The translations under genes and the position numbers were made by a program. DNA of 33,174 nucleotides from Bigelowiella natans CCMP2755 (lineage: Eukaryota; Protista; Cercozoa): contig ADNK01002213.1 in assembly GCA_000320545.1 (NCBI GenBank), positions 1 through 33,174 of the forward strand. Direction: 5' to 3'. Below, piece by piece: positions 14,731-22,700 of this stretch (positions are counted from its first letter, which is position 1; each line of letters opens with the position of its first letter). The notes under the pieces are model-generated. The model made no database searches. It saw nothing but the letters and a program-made list of their open reading frames with translations, and had not been told where the DNA came from.

Positions 14731-16158
14731 ATGACCCCACCCCTCGTTGTGCTCTTGTCTCTTCTCGCTACTCATGCCTCTGCACGAACCGACGCAAGCG
14801 GCAAGCAGAAAATAAATATCAATGAAATAGGCCCATCTCAGTCGCTGATCGATGACGACAGCGGCTACAGCGAGGTGAATCTGGTGTCCTTCATGGCCAA
14901 TTTGAAGCAAAGCACGAGCAAGCCATCCGCTGAGTGTAAGACCGATTCTCTGCCTGATTTTGGGAAAGCAAGGGAGGAAGAGTCGTATTGCTGCCCTCAT
15001 GTGAACAGTAACTTTGCAATGGAGCAGGAAGCCAGAAGGTTAAACATCGGAAAGCCGAAGAGCGGAAAGGGTGCTATTGTCATTCTTGCCCAAAACAAGA
15101 AGCATGAAGTTTACTACCGTGATTGCATTGGTATGCTGAAGAAGAACCTTGACCTTCTTTACAAGAACTACAACAATAAGCAGAAAGATGACATCATCAT
15201 TCTCCACGAGGGAGACTTTGGACCTGAGGATCAGGAGAAGATTATCGATGGACGCAGAGAAGTCTCTTTCATGACCCTTGACGGAGAGAACTGGGCTCAG
15301 CATCCCGCAAGTGGAATTGGCGACAATGACTGTTGTTGGGCTGGCGTTGAAGGTATTGGGTACCGTAAAATGATGCGCTGGTACGCTATTCGTATCTGGC
15401 CTGCAATGAAGGCTAAGGGTTACAAATATGTTGCTCGCTTCGATGACGACTCGTATCTCCTTAGTGAAATTCCTTACAACCTGTTTGGATTTATGGAACA
15501 TTTTGGTATTAATTATGGTTACCGCAACGTTGCTCGTGAGACCGGTCTTATTTGGCCTCGCCCTGACCAGTACAACTCCTTTATCCGCGACTACAGTCGG
15601 CTGAAGCTGAACGGGTCCTTTGGCTGGCTGCTGGATACTTGCGAACAGAAAACCTCCATCCTCGACTTCACTCGCGAGAATTGCGGTGAGCAATACGGAT
15701 TCTACAACAACTTTTTCATCGCTAACATCGACCGATTCTTGGAGGATGACGTCCAGAGCTTCCTATCAGTCCTGGATAACTCAGGGAACATATTCGTCAA
15801 CAGGTGGAACGACTTGATCATCCAGTCTACCACAGTGCAGCTCCTGTTGAAGAAGCAGAACACGTTTCACTTCACAGGGTGGAGTTACGCTCATAACTCT
15901 GGGTTCAACAGCTCCTTGCACTATGGGATTCTCCAGGTGGGAAAGTTCAACAAGAACCCAGTGCAACACTACTACCAAGTGATGGATAGAGATATGGACT
16001 GGTCAGTTGAGGCGCACCAGCACATGCTGTATATGAACAACGGTATCCTCACCCTCTCGAGCCCTGCTCCTGGAAAGTGCTGCGCTGCCAAGCCCGGTGA
16101 ATATTGGCCACACACCGAAGACAGCGGCATTTTGACACCCAACCCGATGATATGTTAA
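14731..16158 (+). CDS. Glycosyltransferase family 15 (Kre2/Mnt1-like alpha-1,2-mannosyltransferase), intronless, 475 aa
   Basis: Uninterrupted ORF with a hydrophobic N-terminus (MTPPLVVLLSLLATHASA). GT15 blocks occur in order: KGAIVILA, GYRKMMRWY (cf. SYRHMCRF), YKYVARFDDDS, IPYNLFGFME...YGY, FYNNFFI, FLSVLDNSGNIFVNRWND (cf. LD..GGFFYERWGD). Confidence 0.85.
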   Translation: MTPPLVVLLSLLATHASARTDASGKQKININEIGPSQSLIDDDSGYSEVNLVSFMANLKQSTSKPSAECKTDSLPDFGKAREEESYCCPHVNSNFAMEQEARRLNIGKPKSGKGAIVILAQNKKHEVYYRDCIGMLKKNLDLLYKNYNNKQKDDIIILHEGDFGPEDQEKIIDGRREVSFMTLDGENWAQHPASGIGDNDCCWAGVEGIGYRKMMRWYAIRIWPAMKAKGYKYVARFDDDSYLLSEIPYNLFGFMEHFGINYGYRNVARETGLIWPRPDQYNSFIRDYSRLKLNGSFGWLLDTCEQKTSILDFTRENCGEQYGFYNNFFIANIDRFLEDDVQSFLSVLDNSGNIFVNRWNDLIIQSTTVQLLLKKQNTFHFTGWSYAHNSGFNSSLHYGILQVGKFNKNPVQHYYQVMDRDMDWSVEAHQHMLYMNNGILTLSSPAPGKCCAAKPGEYWPHTEDSGILTPNPMIC

Positions 16159-16259: not shown

Positions 16260-17450
16260 GAATATGTGGTCGTGTGCAATGTGTAGAGCGATGCGCGCTA
16301 CAGTTTAAGATGTTTTTTTAATGTGCAGCAGGTATTTGCAACAAAATTGCATGGTCACATTATATAAGCGTTAATACACCATTCACATGCTTACATGTGT
16401 GTGGCAGACATATGGCTTATATATTGTTGGATGCCTTCTTTGTAGCTGCCGATCAAGGCAGTATTATTATGCGCACGTGATACCGTGTAGCCGCTGTGAC
16501 AGATGTTGCACGCAATAGACCAAGTACGATACATGCTAGTACACACGTGCTGACTCGCTCTCTAACCTTGCATGGCACCGCCCAACATCCATCGTCAGTT
16601 CTTTCGATCGTTGTTGTGTTGGTTCACATGCTATGTGTACGTGGCATACATGTTGGTACATCATGGGCGACTGAACGTGCATGCATTCATCATGTCTATC
16701 ATTGTGAGCAGGGATCGTTGTGTTCCAAGGGTGCAAATGGGTGCAAGCTTCCACCCTGAAGCACTAATTGACATTTGCACCCTCGCGCGTACAATTTTCT
16801 GCAGCTTGCTTTGATTTTGTTTGCTCTCATTCCTCGCTAGAATGATGCTTGTTTGTTAGGCAACATGCGATGCCGGCTGCTACACACTGCAATATTGCAT
16901 GTGCCACAGCACATGCATGTGCATGCATGCAATTATAATTGGTTTTTGACGCGTGAAGTTATGAATGGCCATGTGCATTCTGAAAAGCTTCACATTGATT
17001 GTTAGAATGGGTGCAAGGCAAGTCATACTAGCAGACTAGCAGGGACCAAGTGGTGCTGGCTGGCATATGCGTGTCTAGATGTCTCTGCTACGCTTGCCTG
17101 CTGCACTGCGTGCTCCTCATGCAAACACTTGGTGCGGCTGCATGCGATCCAAGACGCTGATGAGGTGCTCCACTGATGAGCACATGCTCTAGTGCTGGCG
17201 AGCCTTTCGAAAAATCCACCTCCTTGTTCCTTCCGTAGCCTAAAAAGAGCTCGCGTAGTGTAGCACAATGGCTGCATGGCTACATGTACCAGCATGACCA
17301 ATGAAAAAATGTGATCATTTCAAGGCATCCATCTCGCATATGCTAGCATGTGCTACAGTGCCAGCGCACCGGGTACATTGTTTTAGTTATTTTTTGACCT
17401 TGAAAATCGTGCAACAACTACACATGCGAAGTGCACTAATCGGAACTTAA
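16260..17450. other. Degenerate intergenic tract, TGCA/CATG-rich and partly TpA-depleted; possible decayed repeat or gene
   Basis: Runs such as gcacatgcatgtgcatgcatgca at ~16909-16931. In 16981-17282, 11 of 13 TpA are in a CTA or TAG context. Only short Cys/His-rich ORFs are present. Confidence 0.55.
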
Positions 17451-17519: not shown

Positions 17520-19229
17520 TCACTCCGTCCAAGCTTTCCCTGATTTCGCTGCTTGTATTTGAGACATTTTTACCGTTGCATGCCTCTTTATAGGGTTCTC
17601 GGCTGGATCATCGGACAACTCCACAGTTTGAGAACCCATTTCCTGGGCTGTTTCCACACCATCCAAGTTGTCACTTAAGACTGCTTCCCACGTGAGGTAG
17701 AGCCAACCCATGTATCCACAGAAGATGAAAATAAGGTGAAGCACCCCCCAAAAGATAAGTCCGACGGTGATGATAGTTTCGTCAATGTCCTTTGCGTAGT
17801 CAGGTCTGGTTTCTTGCTGTTCGAAAATGATGATAGCCTCTATGATCAGCGCAATGTAGATCATGAAATTGAAGAACATGTAGAGATCCATGAAAGTGAT
17901 GTAAGAGACAGGCGGCAGTTGCGAGGATATGGAATTCCGATAGGAGACCGTTGTTAACAAGAGCACGGTTACATAAAATACTCGAGTTTGGAGTGCTGCT
18001 GCACCCATTTTCAGGGATACAATTGCAAGTGAAGTAATCAAAAATTGAGGTAGGATGACATTAAACAGGAAATAGAGTTGATATCGCTGGACGCGGATCC
18101 CAATGAATACCGCATTTGGGTCTGCGGACAAGCCTTTTGTGCTGTATTTAATGTCGACCCATGGTTCTACGATCATGTACTGAGAAAGCAAAGTTGGTGC
18201 AACAGTCACGTGTACATGCGGGTGGAGCCTCAGTGGAATTTTCCAATTGGGTTTTGGTTTAGAAACCACATTCCAGTCGCCAAAATCGGCAAGGCAATAA
18301 ACTTGTAGTAGCTGGCGATCGTATGGGAAGCGGTGAACCTCCATACTTTCGAAAACCGAAACTGTAAAACGATACGATAGCATCACAACTTTGGTTTGCG
18401 TATTGTAAAAGAACTCCTCCTCAAGCATATTAAAAGATCCCGGCGCCATTTGTTCGAAGAGCTTGTCCGTGTTCACGGGGATAGAATCATCTCGTGTGAA
18501 TCTGACTGGCACACGCTTCGGGTCTCTGTTGTTTTTGCCATCTTTAATCTCGATGGCTGTCCCAGAGTTCAGAAGATCATCATCTTCCCAGAATAGTCGT
18601 AGCTCCCCAATCAAAGCAAATATCTCATTTCGAAGGTCAATATTAGTGACTTGGAGCTTCATTGACATGTAAACCTCGGGTCGCTCCATTATTTCAATAC
18701 CAGCGACTTTTCTCATTTCATCGACCAAGCCGGCAACCACAGTCCAATTTTGTTTTCTTGATCGGACCTCGTCAGGGATGTTGTAGTGCTCTCCTGATTT
18801 CGTGACTACAACATTCGAATTAAGATCGTATTTCACTATTGGTCCTGTCTTCTTGACGTTAGACCCTTCCTTCCATTCCAGGAAATATCCCTCATTTCCC
18901 TTTCCTTCTGCCCGAATTTGCCAATCGTGTGCATCGAGATATGTTTTTGTCTCGTCCTTGTCGCTCTTCTTCTTTGGTACGTATAGGTCACGGTATTGAA
19001 TCACCTTCAGGATGAATCCAACATCTTTGAATCCCCACATATGAAAGTCGCTCTTCTCGAGGAGCCCGAGACAGTAACCGTTGATGTCATTCTCCTTCAC
19101 CAGGCTCAACCATTTGTCGAGTTCAGGGCTCTTCTTCTCCTCAGATTTGAATTTGAGCTCATAGAATTTTAACGTCTCTTCTGAGGTCCATCGAGAATAA
19201 GCAGCGGACTTGTTCAGTGCTGGAGGCAT
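17520..19229 (-). CDS. Cys-less (Pro-loop, GLIC/ELIC-like) pentameric ligand-gated ion channel subunit with N-terminal SAM-like domain, intronless, 569 aa
   Basis: Beta-sandwich domain from aa ~184 (VTNIDLRNEIF, LRLFWED, MEVHRFPYDRQLL with no flanking cysteines). Pre-M1 Arg (VQR), M1 YFLFNVILPQFLITSL, M2 RVFYVTVLLLTTVSY, M2-M3 loop LPPVSYITFMD, M3, and M4 IITVGLIFWGVLHLIFIF. Residues 12-83 fit the SAM pattern (WTSEET...KENDINGYCL..L...DF..WG....G...KVI). Confidence 0.9.
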   Translation of the reverse strand: MPPALNKSAAYSRWTSEETLKFYELKFKSEEKKSPELDKWLSLVKENDINGYCLGLLEKSDFHMWGFKDVGFILKVIQYRDLYVPKKKSDKDETKTYLDAHDWQIRAEGKGNEGYFLEWKEGSNVKKTGPIVKYDLNSNVVVTKSGEHYNIPDEVRSRKQNWTVVAGLVDEMRKVAGIEIMERPEVYMSMKLQVTNIDLRNEIFALIGELRLFWEDDDLLNSGTAIEIKDGKNNRDPKRVPVRFTRDDSIPVNTDKLFEQMAPGSFNMLEEEFFYNTQTKVVMLSYRFTVSVFESMEVHRFPYDRQLLQVYCLADFGDWNVVSKPKPNWKIPLRLHPHVHVTVAPTLLSQYMIVEPWVDIKYSTKGLSADPNAVFIGIRVQRYQLYFLFNVILPQFLITSLAIVSLKMGAAALQTRVFYVTVLLLTTVSYRNSISSQLPPVSYITFMDLYMFFNFMIYIALIIEAIIIFEQQETRPDYAKDIDETIITVGLIFWGVLHLIFIFCGYMGWLYLTWEAVLSDNLDGVETAQEMGSQTVELSDDPAENPIKRHATVKMSQIQAAKSGKAWTE

Positions 19230-19287
19230 GAGTCAGAAACGCAAGAATGAGTATTAGACCTGTACGAGTGTGGTCAGAGCGGTGTGT

Positions 19288-19360
19288 GTACGATCGTACG
19301 ATACGATATCGTCGTGGTGTTACGCCCGGGCGGTTTTATAAATATCGTGCCGTTTCGAAA
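19288..19360. promoter_or_regulatory. Putative promoter of the ion channel gene, with a TATA-like box and short palindromes
   Basis: TTTATAAA at 19335-19342 lies ~110 nt upstream of the ATG at 19229 (-). Perfect palindromes occur at 19288-19299, 19303-19312, 19323-19332 and 19353-19360. Confidence 0.35.
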
Positions 19361-19766
19361 TTTTTAATTTCCCAGGAAAAACGAACTACGACTATCTTTT
19401 TATGAGTTTAAACGAAGGGAAAAGGAAAAAAGCAACATGCGAAATGGAAAAGCTAGATCTATTTGTAGTGCGCAAATCTTCCAGTCGCATACGAGTTACG
19501 AAATGCGAGTGGATATCGACTTTTTCCGGCCCGAAGGTGTTGGCGAACGGTGAACTGCTCCTAGCCTCGAGTCGCAGGGGGTGAATATGCCACTGGGCGC
19601 ATTTTTCAATTTTCCCAGTTCATTTTTTAGAAAAGACATAATCGAAGTCATGTCGTAGTTGTAATAATTTAATTTTCGGAGTTTATCCCGTTATTCTCGA
19701 GCACCGACGAGCAGCGACGAGCAACGGAAAACTTCGCGCACGCCCTCCTCCGAAGGGAGGAAGGCG

Positions 19767-22700
19767 ATGCAGTTGGCCACATCGCGGAGACTTGGGGAGT
19801 GGGTTCTATTTTCAATTGCAATATTTATAATATCTTCGTGCTTAAAGGGCAGTGAGGACGAGCATGCTAAAGTCGTTGTCTTTTCAGACGAAAATGGGTA
19901 CTTCGAGAGCAGCTTGCTAGATCGCATCATCGTTGTCTTTTGTACCATTGTTAACGTGCTGCGCTGCCTAGCCTTCGTCCCCAGTACTTTGTAGAACTCT
20001 AGTTCTACGTTTGTTTTTCTTCTTCTTGATACAAATTCCTCGTGTTATACAAGTGCGAGCGGTGTAACTAAGGCGCCCGAGGCAATGAAGATAGCTGTGA
20101 TGATCTCCGGACAGCAATCACGATTTTCGTATAAAGAGGGACTTGATCTTTTGGCGCCCAAAGCTTTACGTTATCTTTTTGAGGGCGGATTTCGAAAAAT
20201 CGACAATGGCACAGAGATAGGGATAAACAGGGAGGGGAACCAGACTCGCCTACCCTCTCGCCGTGTTCAAATCGATGTATTCGTTACTCTTCAGCAAGGT
20301 CATCACACCACCACGACAGGCCACATCCAGATTCAACAATTTAATATAAAAATTTTATTGTATCATGCAAGGCGATCGTAAATTGGACGGTGTGCGTAAT
20401 GATGGAGAATATATCGATGATGTGTGTCTAATGTATAAAGGTTCCATAGGGGCGAAAAACTGGGCAGGTATATAATAAATATATATACCCATTGCAATGA
20501 TAAAATGTGGACTTTTGATTTGGAACAATTAAAACTTCCAAGCTCAAACAGGATCTTATATGAAAATTAAATTTTGGAACGTCCACTTTCATATAACCCA
20601 AGAGATTAATTTGGGGCGCGATAGCTCTCGACGAATGTGACTCTTTACGCAGCAATTGACGATGATAAAATCGAAATTCCTTCTGTCTGAACTATCCACA
20701 TCGCTACTTAAACACCGTATTTCACCACACTTGCTTTGATGTCACCTTATCGAGACTTGTGCTTTCCTGCTATCAGGAGTGAGGCCCCTCCAACCTCCGT
20801 ATGAAGAGGGTGCCTTTAGCACAGAAACCATCCGGAAGTTCTATATTGGCCATGGGGCGGATTATGTCCAGGTTTGACTTTCTCCCTTTTCACAGCACAT
20901 ACAGATACACACATATAAATGAATCAATAAATAAATAAATTCCCATCGTGGTTGTTTTGAGCACAGGTGTGTTTGTGTTTTGATGCATTTGGCTGTATGT
21001 ACCGCCGGCTTGACTCAGGTCAAACACGTAGCAAGCGAAGAAATAGAGAAGGTATATTCTTCAATCAGACAAATGACGACGCATGAGTGCCCAAGCTTAC
21101 GCCTAAGTGAATGCGTTCCGATGTCATCCCCTCCCCCCCCCCCGCTCTTTCTCCCTTGACCATCTGATGGCAGGATCTGAGCTCGTTCAAAGGAGCTATG
21201 CTGGAGAAACACGGGCAGAAATGGTAGTTTTTGAACACAATTTCCATACAGATAGTAGGCGTTTTTTGACATCACAATGATAGGCTCATCACCATCATCA
21301 TTATCATCATCATCATCGTCATCATAATCATTGTCGTCGTCGTCCCTGCTGCTGCTGCTGCTGCTGCTGCTGTAAAACAAATAATAGGTGGAACACGCAC
21401 ATGGATGCGTCCAAGTTCAATAAATATGGAAACCCGTAAGTAGTAACAGCTCCTCCGCTTTCCCATAAATATGTTTTCTCGTGTTGGTTTTTCGTCGTTC
21501 GATGTGAGTAATGACTCCAAAAGAAAAACTTCAAATTGCGTATTCACTTGCTCTGAATAGTATTGCTGAAATTGAAACAGTACATAGCGGTATGTAGTTG
21601 TGAAACTACTTTTAGGAATGCCGTCTATCTTGCGATTAATTGTAGGTTTCTCGGTTCATATGCAATGTTCTATCTACGGCACCGAGTAGTGTATTTTACG
21701 TTTCGAAGAGAGAGATCATCAACAGCTCACATGAATACCAATACCGTTAATATCTCGTGCATGCGGGGTTGATTTCACGCTTTAGATATGCGCCGTTGCA
21801 TCTAGAACATATGTGATATTGTATTCAAACGCGAGGACGTATTTCAGGCATTCCTGGAGGTCATCCACGGAGAGAGGACTCGAGGGGGAAATTCACAATA
21901 TGATTATGTCTTAACACTACGGGAAGACAACTGCTTCATGAGCGTCATTCGTGAAGGCTACTACGGCAAGCTGGTAGTGTGATTGTCTTTACACTACATG
22001 ATGCAGAACCACGATTTTCTCTTGGAAATATGATAAGGTGTCGGCTCTACTATGGGTAAGTGAGTAGTAGCTGCGTATTCTTGTTTTGTTCAGATTCGTG
22101 ACCTTGAATCATCGGCGGCGAAAATCAACTCCACGCAGCACCAGCAACAGGCACTGCCGCAATTGTTTATCTATATGCAATTTTTAAGAAGATCGTGCAA
22201 ATGTTTGGTATTTTATTATGCTTCTTTGATTTCATCGATTGTTATGGAAGATGACATCGTGACGTTTATTCCTCGATGCAATGACTATTTTTCTTTCGCG
22301 GCGACCCGAACCTCGAAAACTATCTCTTCTGATGCTTTGATTGCAGAGAGCCTTGGTGGTTGACCGTTTTCTTGCGTAGTGGCGGCATGTGCATTCGTCA
22401 TTATTCTCGAAATCCTATCTTTGTCCAACGAGAGAGGCATCGTATAGCACCAACTTTACATTTCTCTTCCACCAAGAACCAGTTCTTAGCTCTCTCGCTT
22501 CCCCTTCAGGTCATCGTAGATCATGTATGCGGAAATGGTGGTCTTTCGGATAAAATCCTCCTCCCCAATCGAATGGCGGCCTCAGTTCTATTTGGAGAAA
22601 ACTATGTAATTTCCACCAAAGAAGATAGGCATCGCGCGCACAAAATATGTCGAGGGAATATCCATCTGTTCAGAAGTTCCAAAAGCTTTGAGCGTCGGCT

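Follow-up and report, generated by a model that had tools for sequence, protein, structure and literature searches.

The pLGICs characterised so far respond, to our knowledge, to conditions outside the cell. The eukaryotic Cys-less 'Pro-loop' receptors, which have been found in protists and some invertebrates (PMC4795631; Johnson et al. 2023, PMC9874803), share with the protein considered here an F/YPxD loop devoid of cysteines, the conserved interface residues, a short M3–M4 loop, a protist host and the lack of a known ligand. The clade was defined by Jaiteh, Taly and Henin (2016; PMC4795631) with terminal regions discarded, and the term 'signal peptide' occurs 0 times in the accessible part of that text; the accessible part of Johnson et al. 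(PMC9874803) treats the ligand-binding domain as extracellular. As far as these two partial texts extend, neither describes a leaderless state, an inversion, or a fusion to a SAM or SANTA-like domain; the leaderless state, the fusion and the probable inversion set the present protein apart. Signal-peptide prediction has been run on molluscan Cys-less receptors (PMC13174522, accessible portion). The prokaryotic channels GLIC, ELIC, sTeLIC and DeCLIC are likewise Cys-less and have the same fold as our model (GLIC, Z 21.0; DeCLIC, Z 21.1), and DeCLIC also carries extra N-terminal domains; prokaryotic pLGICs differ from our protein in having a signal peptide, and their accessory domains are periplasmic (Tasneem et al., PMC549065, in the part available). 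Animal Cys-loop receptors (GlyR, GABA-A, RDL, GluCl) are the closest sequence and structure matches among solved proteins (E 1e-9 to 2e-8; Z 21.9, rmsd 3.6, 306 aligned), but their disulfide, signal peptide, large basic M3–M4 loop and PAR/GEK selectivity motif are all missing from the protein. No description of an inverted or SAM-fused pLGIC was found in the open-access literature, subscription papers lying outside the scope of the search.

Here we analyse a gene in a 33,174-nt stretch of Bigelowiella natans DNA (hereafter the window). The gene is an intronless, expressed minus-strand ORF of 569 codons, with the N-terminus given in the original prediction, and encodes a pLGIC subunit preceded by a SAM domain and a predicted SANTA-like domain. 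We conclude that this leaderless Cys-less layout belongs to a real expressed gene whose product is probably inverted in the membrane. Feature coordinates are collected in Table 1.

Table 1. Features of the channel gene, in window coordinates
Feature	Position	Strand	Basis
SAM + SANTA-like + Cys-less pLGIC subunit ORF	17520..19229	-	RNA contigs colinear, no internal joints
SAM domain, aa 9–88, five helices	18966..19205	-	model, homologue profile, structure searches
SANTA/DUF6634-like small beta domain + helix, aa 94–176	18702..18950	-	predicted fold similarity
pLGIC beta-sandwich 'ligand-binding' domain, aa 180–384	18078..18692	-	sequence match + model
Pro-loop FPYD, aa 301–304, no flanking cysteines	18318..18329	-	sequence
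Transmembrane helices M1–M4, aa 385–506; short acidic M3–M4 loop	17712..18077	-	sequence + model
Post-M4 tail, aa 507–569, W514 + predicted helix	17523..17711	-	sequence + model
Unspliced 5′ leader without ATG, with in-frame TGA at 19235–19233	19230..19311	-	RNA contigs + sequence
TATA-box-like TATAAAA	19334..19340	-	~30 nt above furthest RNA contig end (19311); function inferred from position relative to contig ends

The transcript probably begins close upstream of the start codon

Six marine metatranscriptome runs were aligned to the locus, and the contig ends reported are those among the contigs listed. RNA contigs from five of the six runs are colinear and unspliced across the ATG and end 44–82 nt beyond it, with 5′ ends at 19273, 19286, 19299, 19307 and 19311; coverage in the sixth run (X20) stops at 19119, which leaves it uninformative on the 5′ end. 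A further, independent contig (L054) has its start at 19307 too and retains the in-frame TGA, which lies two codons upstream of the ATG. The runs are evidently RNA: in the neighbouring gene, 7 GT-AG introns are spliced out of them. Two DNA runs continue upstream past the RNA ends, no loose ends occur at the RNA 5′ termini among the contigs listed, and no upstream ATG exists between 19230 and 19437. Six contig ends within 40 nt below the TATA box fit an unspliced leader of 80 nt, with the qualification that contigs are a weak guide to transcription start sites and can only hint at one. In addition, transcriptome-derived proteins from the same cluster begin at the same Met, and two transcriptome contigs encoding the channel protein are ~3.55 kb long, compared with the 1.9 kb covered at the locus. 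A missed upstream exon supplying a signal peptide had been named as the observation that would overturn the original prediction; the RNA contigs contain none, the in-frame stop and the TATA position agree, and such an exon is unlikely.

The ORF contains at least 20 strain differences. All seven of those listed in aa 1–180 are synonymous, and seven of the eight listed in aa 478–534 (window 17628–17798; M4 and tail) are non-synonymous.

The C-terminal two-thirds form a Cys-less pLGIC subunit

Pfam returns sub-threshold matches to both pLGIC domains, and among solved proteins glycine and GABA-A receptors give sequence matches of E 1e-9 to 1e-5. An AlphaFold2 model built from a 63-sequence alignment has a mean pLDDT of 82.9, and its residues 180–516 match pLGIC structures (Foldseek E 5e-17; Z 21.9, rmsd 3.6, 306 aligned). 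The modelled beta-sandwich followed by four transmembrane helices is the arrangement by which the pLGIC superfamily is recognised, and the seven positions that Jaiteh et al. list for the superfamily are all present (F301, P302, D304, Y351 at the W/F/Y site, R382, P394 and P439). M2 retains R0′ (R416) and L9′ (L425), and W514 in the tail is conserved across the clade, being Trp in 109 of the 112 listed relatives that have a residue there.

Cysteines occur only at positions 53, 312 and 504; E294 and L308 replace the pair that flanks the loop in animal Cys-loop receptors, so that the C-x13-C disulfide loop of those receptors is absent and the proposed FPYD loop without cysteines is borne out. The hydrophilic N-terminus, with no hydrophobic segment ahead of M1, likewise stood up to a Kyte–Doolittle scan: the best 19-residue mean is 0.39 for segments starting within the first 60 aa and 0.87 anywhere up to aa 360, as against 1.6–2.5 for M1, M3 and M4. 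The signal peptide typical of characterised pLGICs is therefore missing, there being neither a hydrophobic N-terminus nor an upstream exon in the RNA contigs.

Two folded domains precede the ligand-binding domain

A SAM-like region had been proposed at aa 12–83, and a failure to model as such would have refuted the original prediction. The model of aa 1–180 has five helices at 16–81, and SAM domains fill the top ranks of the structure search, led by CNK2 (Z 9.7, rmsd 3.2, 74 aligned); the SAM domains of CNK2, DGK-delta, SARM1 and Shank3 share the five-helix fold at Z 7.6–9.7. Foldseek gives probability 1.00 and a target TM of 0.75–0.80 for several SAMs, with all E values > 0.001. The channel protein itself does not reach the gathering score of Pfam SAM_1 or SAM_2, and its SAM is in this respect degenerate by comparison with those of CNK2, DGK-delta, SHANK, Scm and SARM1. 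Pfam SAM passes its cut-off in three of the 100 relatives scanned from the 150 listed (P0003, P0006 and P0012, not P0005). A profile made from four homologues, with the query excluded, scores the channel protein at 16.2 bits versus ≤5.8 for 1000 shuffles, and the subfamily SAM profile matches the DGK-delta SAM (E 4e-8). Prediction of a SAM homodimer, with the alignment not used, scored 0.00 and is uninformative on self-association. SAM domains are not strictly cytosolic, that of STIM being ER-luminal; the STIM structure stands at rank 44 in our SAM structure search.

A second domain, overlooked in the original prediction, is modelled at aa 94–176. It resembles the SANTA domain of M18BP1 (Foldseek, 9r6h, probability 0.99, rmsd 2.6, 59 columns; VIA, Z 6.1, 80 aligned). 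Atlas matches comprise SANTA, DUF6634 and small phage proteins at TM 0.58–0.69, those to the M18BP1 SANTA fold at TM 0.58–0.64, and all fall under the naming bar. The SANTA domain of M18BP1/KNL2 (PF09133) and DUF6634 (PF20339) consist of a small beta domain followed by a helix, as is predicted here. Because aa 94–176 match nothing in Pfam or the PDB at the sequence level, the likeness to SANTA is one of fold only; the region also drew no Atlas feature match and no clear match among viral structures. It gives no reason to infer a centromere role for the channel protein. Related beta domains occur in phages (PMC12953894, in the part available).

The SAM-bearing channels form one branch of a wider eukaryotic family

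Relatives were taken as the best 150 of 1460 listed plus 9 cluster members; after removal of 5 animal- or bacterial-type matches and 11 duplicates or fragments, 144 remained, including the query. For comparison we used 47 prokaryotic Cys-less ORFs, drawn from 53 loci, together with 120 GABA-receptor-like proteins of animals as controls. Both control sets are narrow (one bacterial branch with three archaea, and GABA-receptor-like animals), and sequences within the family and within the controls are related to one another, so that the comparisons below overstate significance. Word-index protein searches with the channel protein had recovered only itself and a fragment.

The SAM, SANTA-like and pLGIC layout occurs in the query and four other sequences, which together form a single branch with 95% SH-aLRT in a quick tree of 68 rows; the named members are Amorphochlora, Lotharella and Bigelowiella. 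Named members of the wider family are Paulinella, Foraminifera, Pelomyxa and Hyaloraphidium. In the quick tree, the eukaryotic Cys-less relatives lie on one side of a branch with 96% SH-aLRT that separates them from both control sets, and the channel protein clusters with Cys-less proteins from Rhizaria, Pelomyxa and Hyaloraphidium, the tree having been built without the sequences of Jaiteh et al. Among the 100 relatives scanned, domains of a cytosolic type stand ahead of the ligand domain, namely PH in P0060 and P0135 and GYF_2 in P0150, which also favours a cytosolic ligand domain.

Several individual relatives have features of their own. P0150 carries KOW together with GYF_2, and P0024 has a weak C-terminal TB2/DP1/HVA22 match. 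The Pelomyxa schiedti proteins P0063, P0066 and P0068 have N-terminal extensions of 560–800 aa that lack Pfam matches. A helical stretch immediately ahead of the channel in P0063 looks SAM-like by eye, but its SAM match is weak (E 0.98) and accompanied by spurious repeat matches; given this score, we do not claim that SAM was fused independently a second time. Another leaderless Cys-less pLGIC, P0021 (KAI9031088.1), is annotated in Hyaloraphidium curvatum, which we take to be an early-diverging fungus, and may be a contaminant. Jaiteh et al. (PMC4795631), in the portion available, report no Cys-less pLGIC in Fungi.

Topology signals across the family are opposite to those of canonical channels

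The comparison of N-termini covered proteins in which a Met and no fewer than 20 residues precede β1, and asked for a 10-residue hydrophobicity of at least 2.0 within the first 40 aa. A hydrophobic N-terminus was found in only 2 of 71 eukaryotic Cys-less relatives (of the 144 listed), compared with 23 of 26 prokaryotic Cys-less controls (of 43 with an intact 5′ end) and 42 of 78 animal controls (of 120). The rule is cruder than SignalP and missed 36 of the 78 animal controls, many of which are N-terminally short models; where at least 45 aa precede β1, it detected 42 of 54. The 69 relatives that lack the stretch include genome models with 560–800 aa before β1. Judged by this rule, the missing signal peptide appears to be a trait of the wider eukaryotic Cys-less family that does not depend on the SAM domain. 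P0013 is the sole relative with a strong hydrophobic segment before the ligand domain (~aa 54–73); basic residues follow it directly, which would also put the ligand domain in the cytosol.

Charge distributions point the same way for the clade. The M3–M4 loop, which is cytosolic in studied pLGICs, carries a net negative charge in 114 of 137 listed relatives, whereas that of 33 of 35 prokaryotes is net positive, and a post-M4 tail of at least 15 aa is present in 134 of 137 relatives versus 1 of 35 prokaryotes; a basic loop and almost no tail thus distinguish the prokaryotic controls from the clade. With the C-terminal tail excluded, and with the pre-M1 arginine conserved in all pLGICs contributing to the count, K and R are in excess on the ligand-domain side in 104 of 137 relatives, with 14 showing the opposite bias, but in only 3 of 35 prokaryotes (26 opposite); the bias is also opposite (negative) in 102 of 107 animals, for which other boundaries were used. 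The channel protein's own K/R bias is neutral (–1), the five SAM members giving –1, –2, 0, +4 and 0, and all five show a net-charge bias of inverted sign (+3 to +6). Sequon numbers match the chance expectation for both sets (ratios 1.10 and 1.05) and do not separate them. The proposal that the 'extracellular' domain faces the cytosol is thus strengthened by the family-wide loss of the signal peptide and the flipped M3–M4 charge and is weakened by the protein's own K/R count; the topology itself is inferred, from signals that run opposite to canonical for the clade but, counted as K/R, are neutral in this protein.

Alternatives to an inverted channel

The conventional orientation would require the ligand-binding domain to be exported through a missed leader exon or by signal-peptide-independent translocation, leaving the SAM domain luminal or extracellular as in STIM. 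The neutral K/R bias of the protein would permit this, contigs cannot prove a start site, and the 3.55-kb transcriptome contigs that encode the channel protein leave room for more transcript than is covered at the locus. Export is, moreover, the superfamily norm, signal peptides being present in all bacterial members found (Tasneem et al., PMC549065, in the part available). Against these stand the in-frame stop, the TATA position and the six concordant 5′ ends, the shared Met of the transcriptome-derived proteins, and the 69 of 71 listed relatives, long genome models included, that lack an N-terminal hydrophobic stretch. We also know of no route that moves 385 residues with three folded domains across the ER leaderless, and we regard this orientation as improbable. 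A non-hydrophobic presequence that directs the protein into a mitochondrion or a complex plastid, with the domain then facing an organellar compartment, might be read from the first 16 residues, which contain K and R and no acidic residue. The SAM fold, however, begins by residue 9, the N-termini of homologues vary widely and are often acidic, and import into the chlorarachniophyte plastid needs a signal peptide; this explanation is very improbable.

A rather stronger alternative, although still unlikely, accepts the inversion and disputes the pore: as an accessory or scaffold subunit the protein would supply a heteropentamer with SAM and SANTA-like domains, or it would act as a receptor that conducts no ions and signals by binding proteins. 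The pore residues of M2 are indeed atypical. Bulky, hydrophobic F and V occupy 2′ and 6′, whereas most relatives have S or G at 2′ and 116 of the 144 listed carry T at 6′; at –1′ and –4′, where acidic residues are common in the clade, the protein has T and A; and other SAM members are also odd at 6′ (R, I). The preponderance of non-synonymous strain differences in M4 and the tail points in the same direction. Retention of the seven superfamily positions together with R0′ and L9′, by contrast, suggests that gating coupling is still under selection.

A proposed cytosol-gated channel subunit

We therefore favour an inverted channel, since the absence of an export signal and the presence of a SAM interaction domain suggest that the sensor half faces the cell interior. 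That the ligand-binding domain is cytosolic, with or without a pore, we consider highly probable on sequence grounds. The fuller reading, an inverted and gated channel subunit carrying a SAM and a predicted SANTA-like domain, is reasonably likely. Its extension to a whole eukaryotic branch of the pLGIC superfamily, flipped and gated by intracellular signals, is offered more tentatively; in one subfamily, that of the chlorarachniophytes, the inverted gate would be linked both to clustering through SAM and to partner binding through the SANTA-like module.

A leaderless N-terminus with folded domains stays cytosolic, and the first transmembrane helix then acts as a signal anchor. On this basis, the 385 N-terminal residues would fold in the cytosol and M1 would serve as an uncleaved signal anchor. 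Four helices would then give an N-in/C-in topology, with both termini and the M2–M3 loop in the cytosol and the acidic M1–M2 and M3–M4 loops outside or in a lumen, a placement that agrees with the charges of the clade. Five subunits would assemble, possibly with paralogues in view of the unusually hydrophobic pore face; a homopentamer with F2′ and V6′ might not conduct. A cytosolic cue (an ion, pH, a metabolite or a bound protein) acting on the beta-sandwich could open the L9′ gate through the Pro-loop/pre-M1 interface, while the SAM and SANTA-like domains may dock cytosolic partners or neighbouring channels.

If the branch is inverted, its gating machine would work in either orientation. Inversion would also offer an explanation for the lack of a known ligand among the Cys-less receptors of protists and flatworms, agonists usually being applied outside, and the reducing cytosol would be a possible reason for the missing disulfide. 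The role of pLGICs in single cells would then become a simple question of topology and inside-out patches, and the SAM and SANTA-like fusion would provide a handle on cytosolic partners.

Neighbouring genes

Within the 33,174-nt window there was no Rfam match, and Pfam on the 105 other frames yielded one below-cut-off, low-complexity match only, so that gene context adds nothing on the channel. Convergent with the channel gene is an intronless expressed gene (14731–16158, plus strand) whose product belongs to the glycolipid 2-alpha-mannosyltransferase family (Pfam GT15, E 6e-18) and is hydrophobic at its N-terminus. The divergent neighbour (19740–21973, plus strand) has, according to RNA contigs, at least 7 GT-AG introns and exons down to ~27–40 nt. 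Downstream of the channel gene, the pieces 17180–17197 and 17340–17362 match other DNA-run contigs in opposite orientations and may mark the two ends of a small repeat element.
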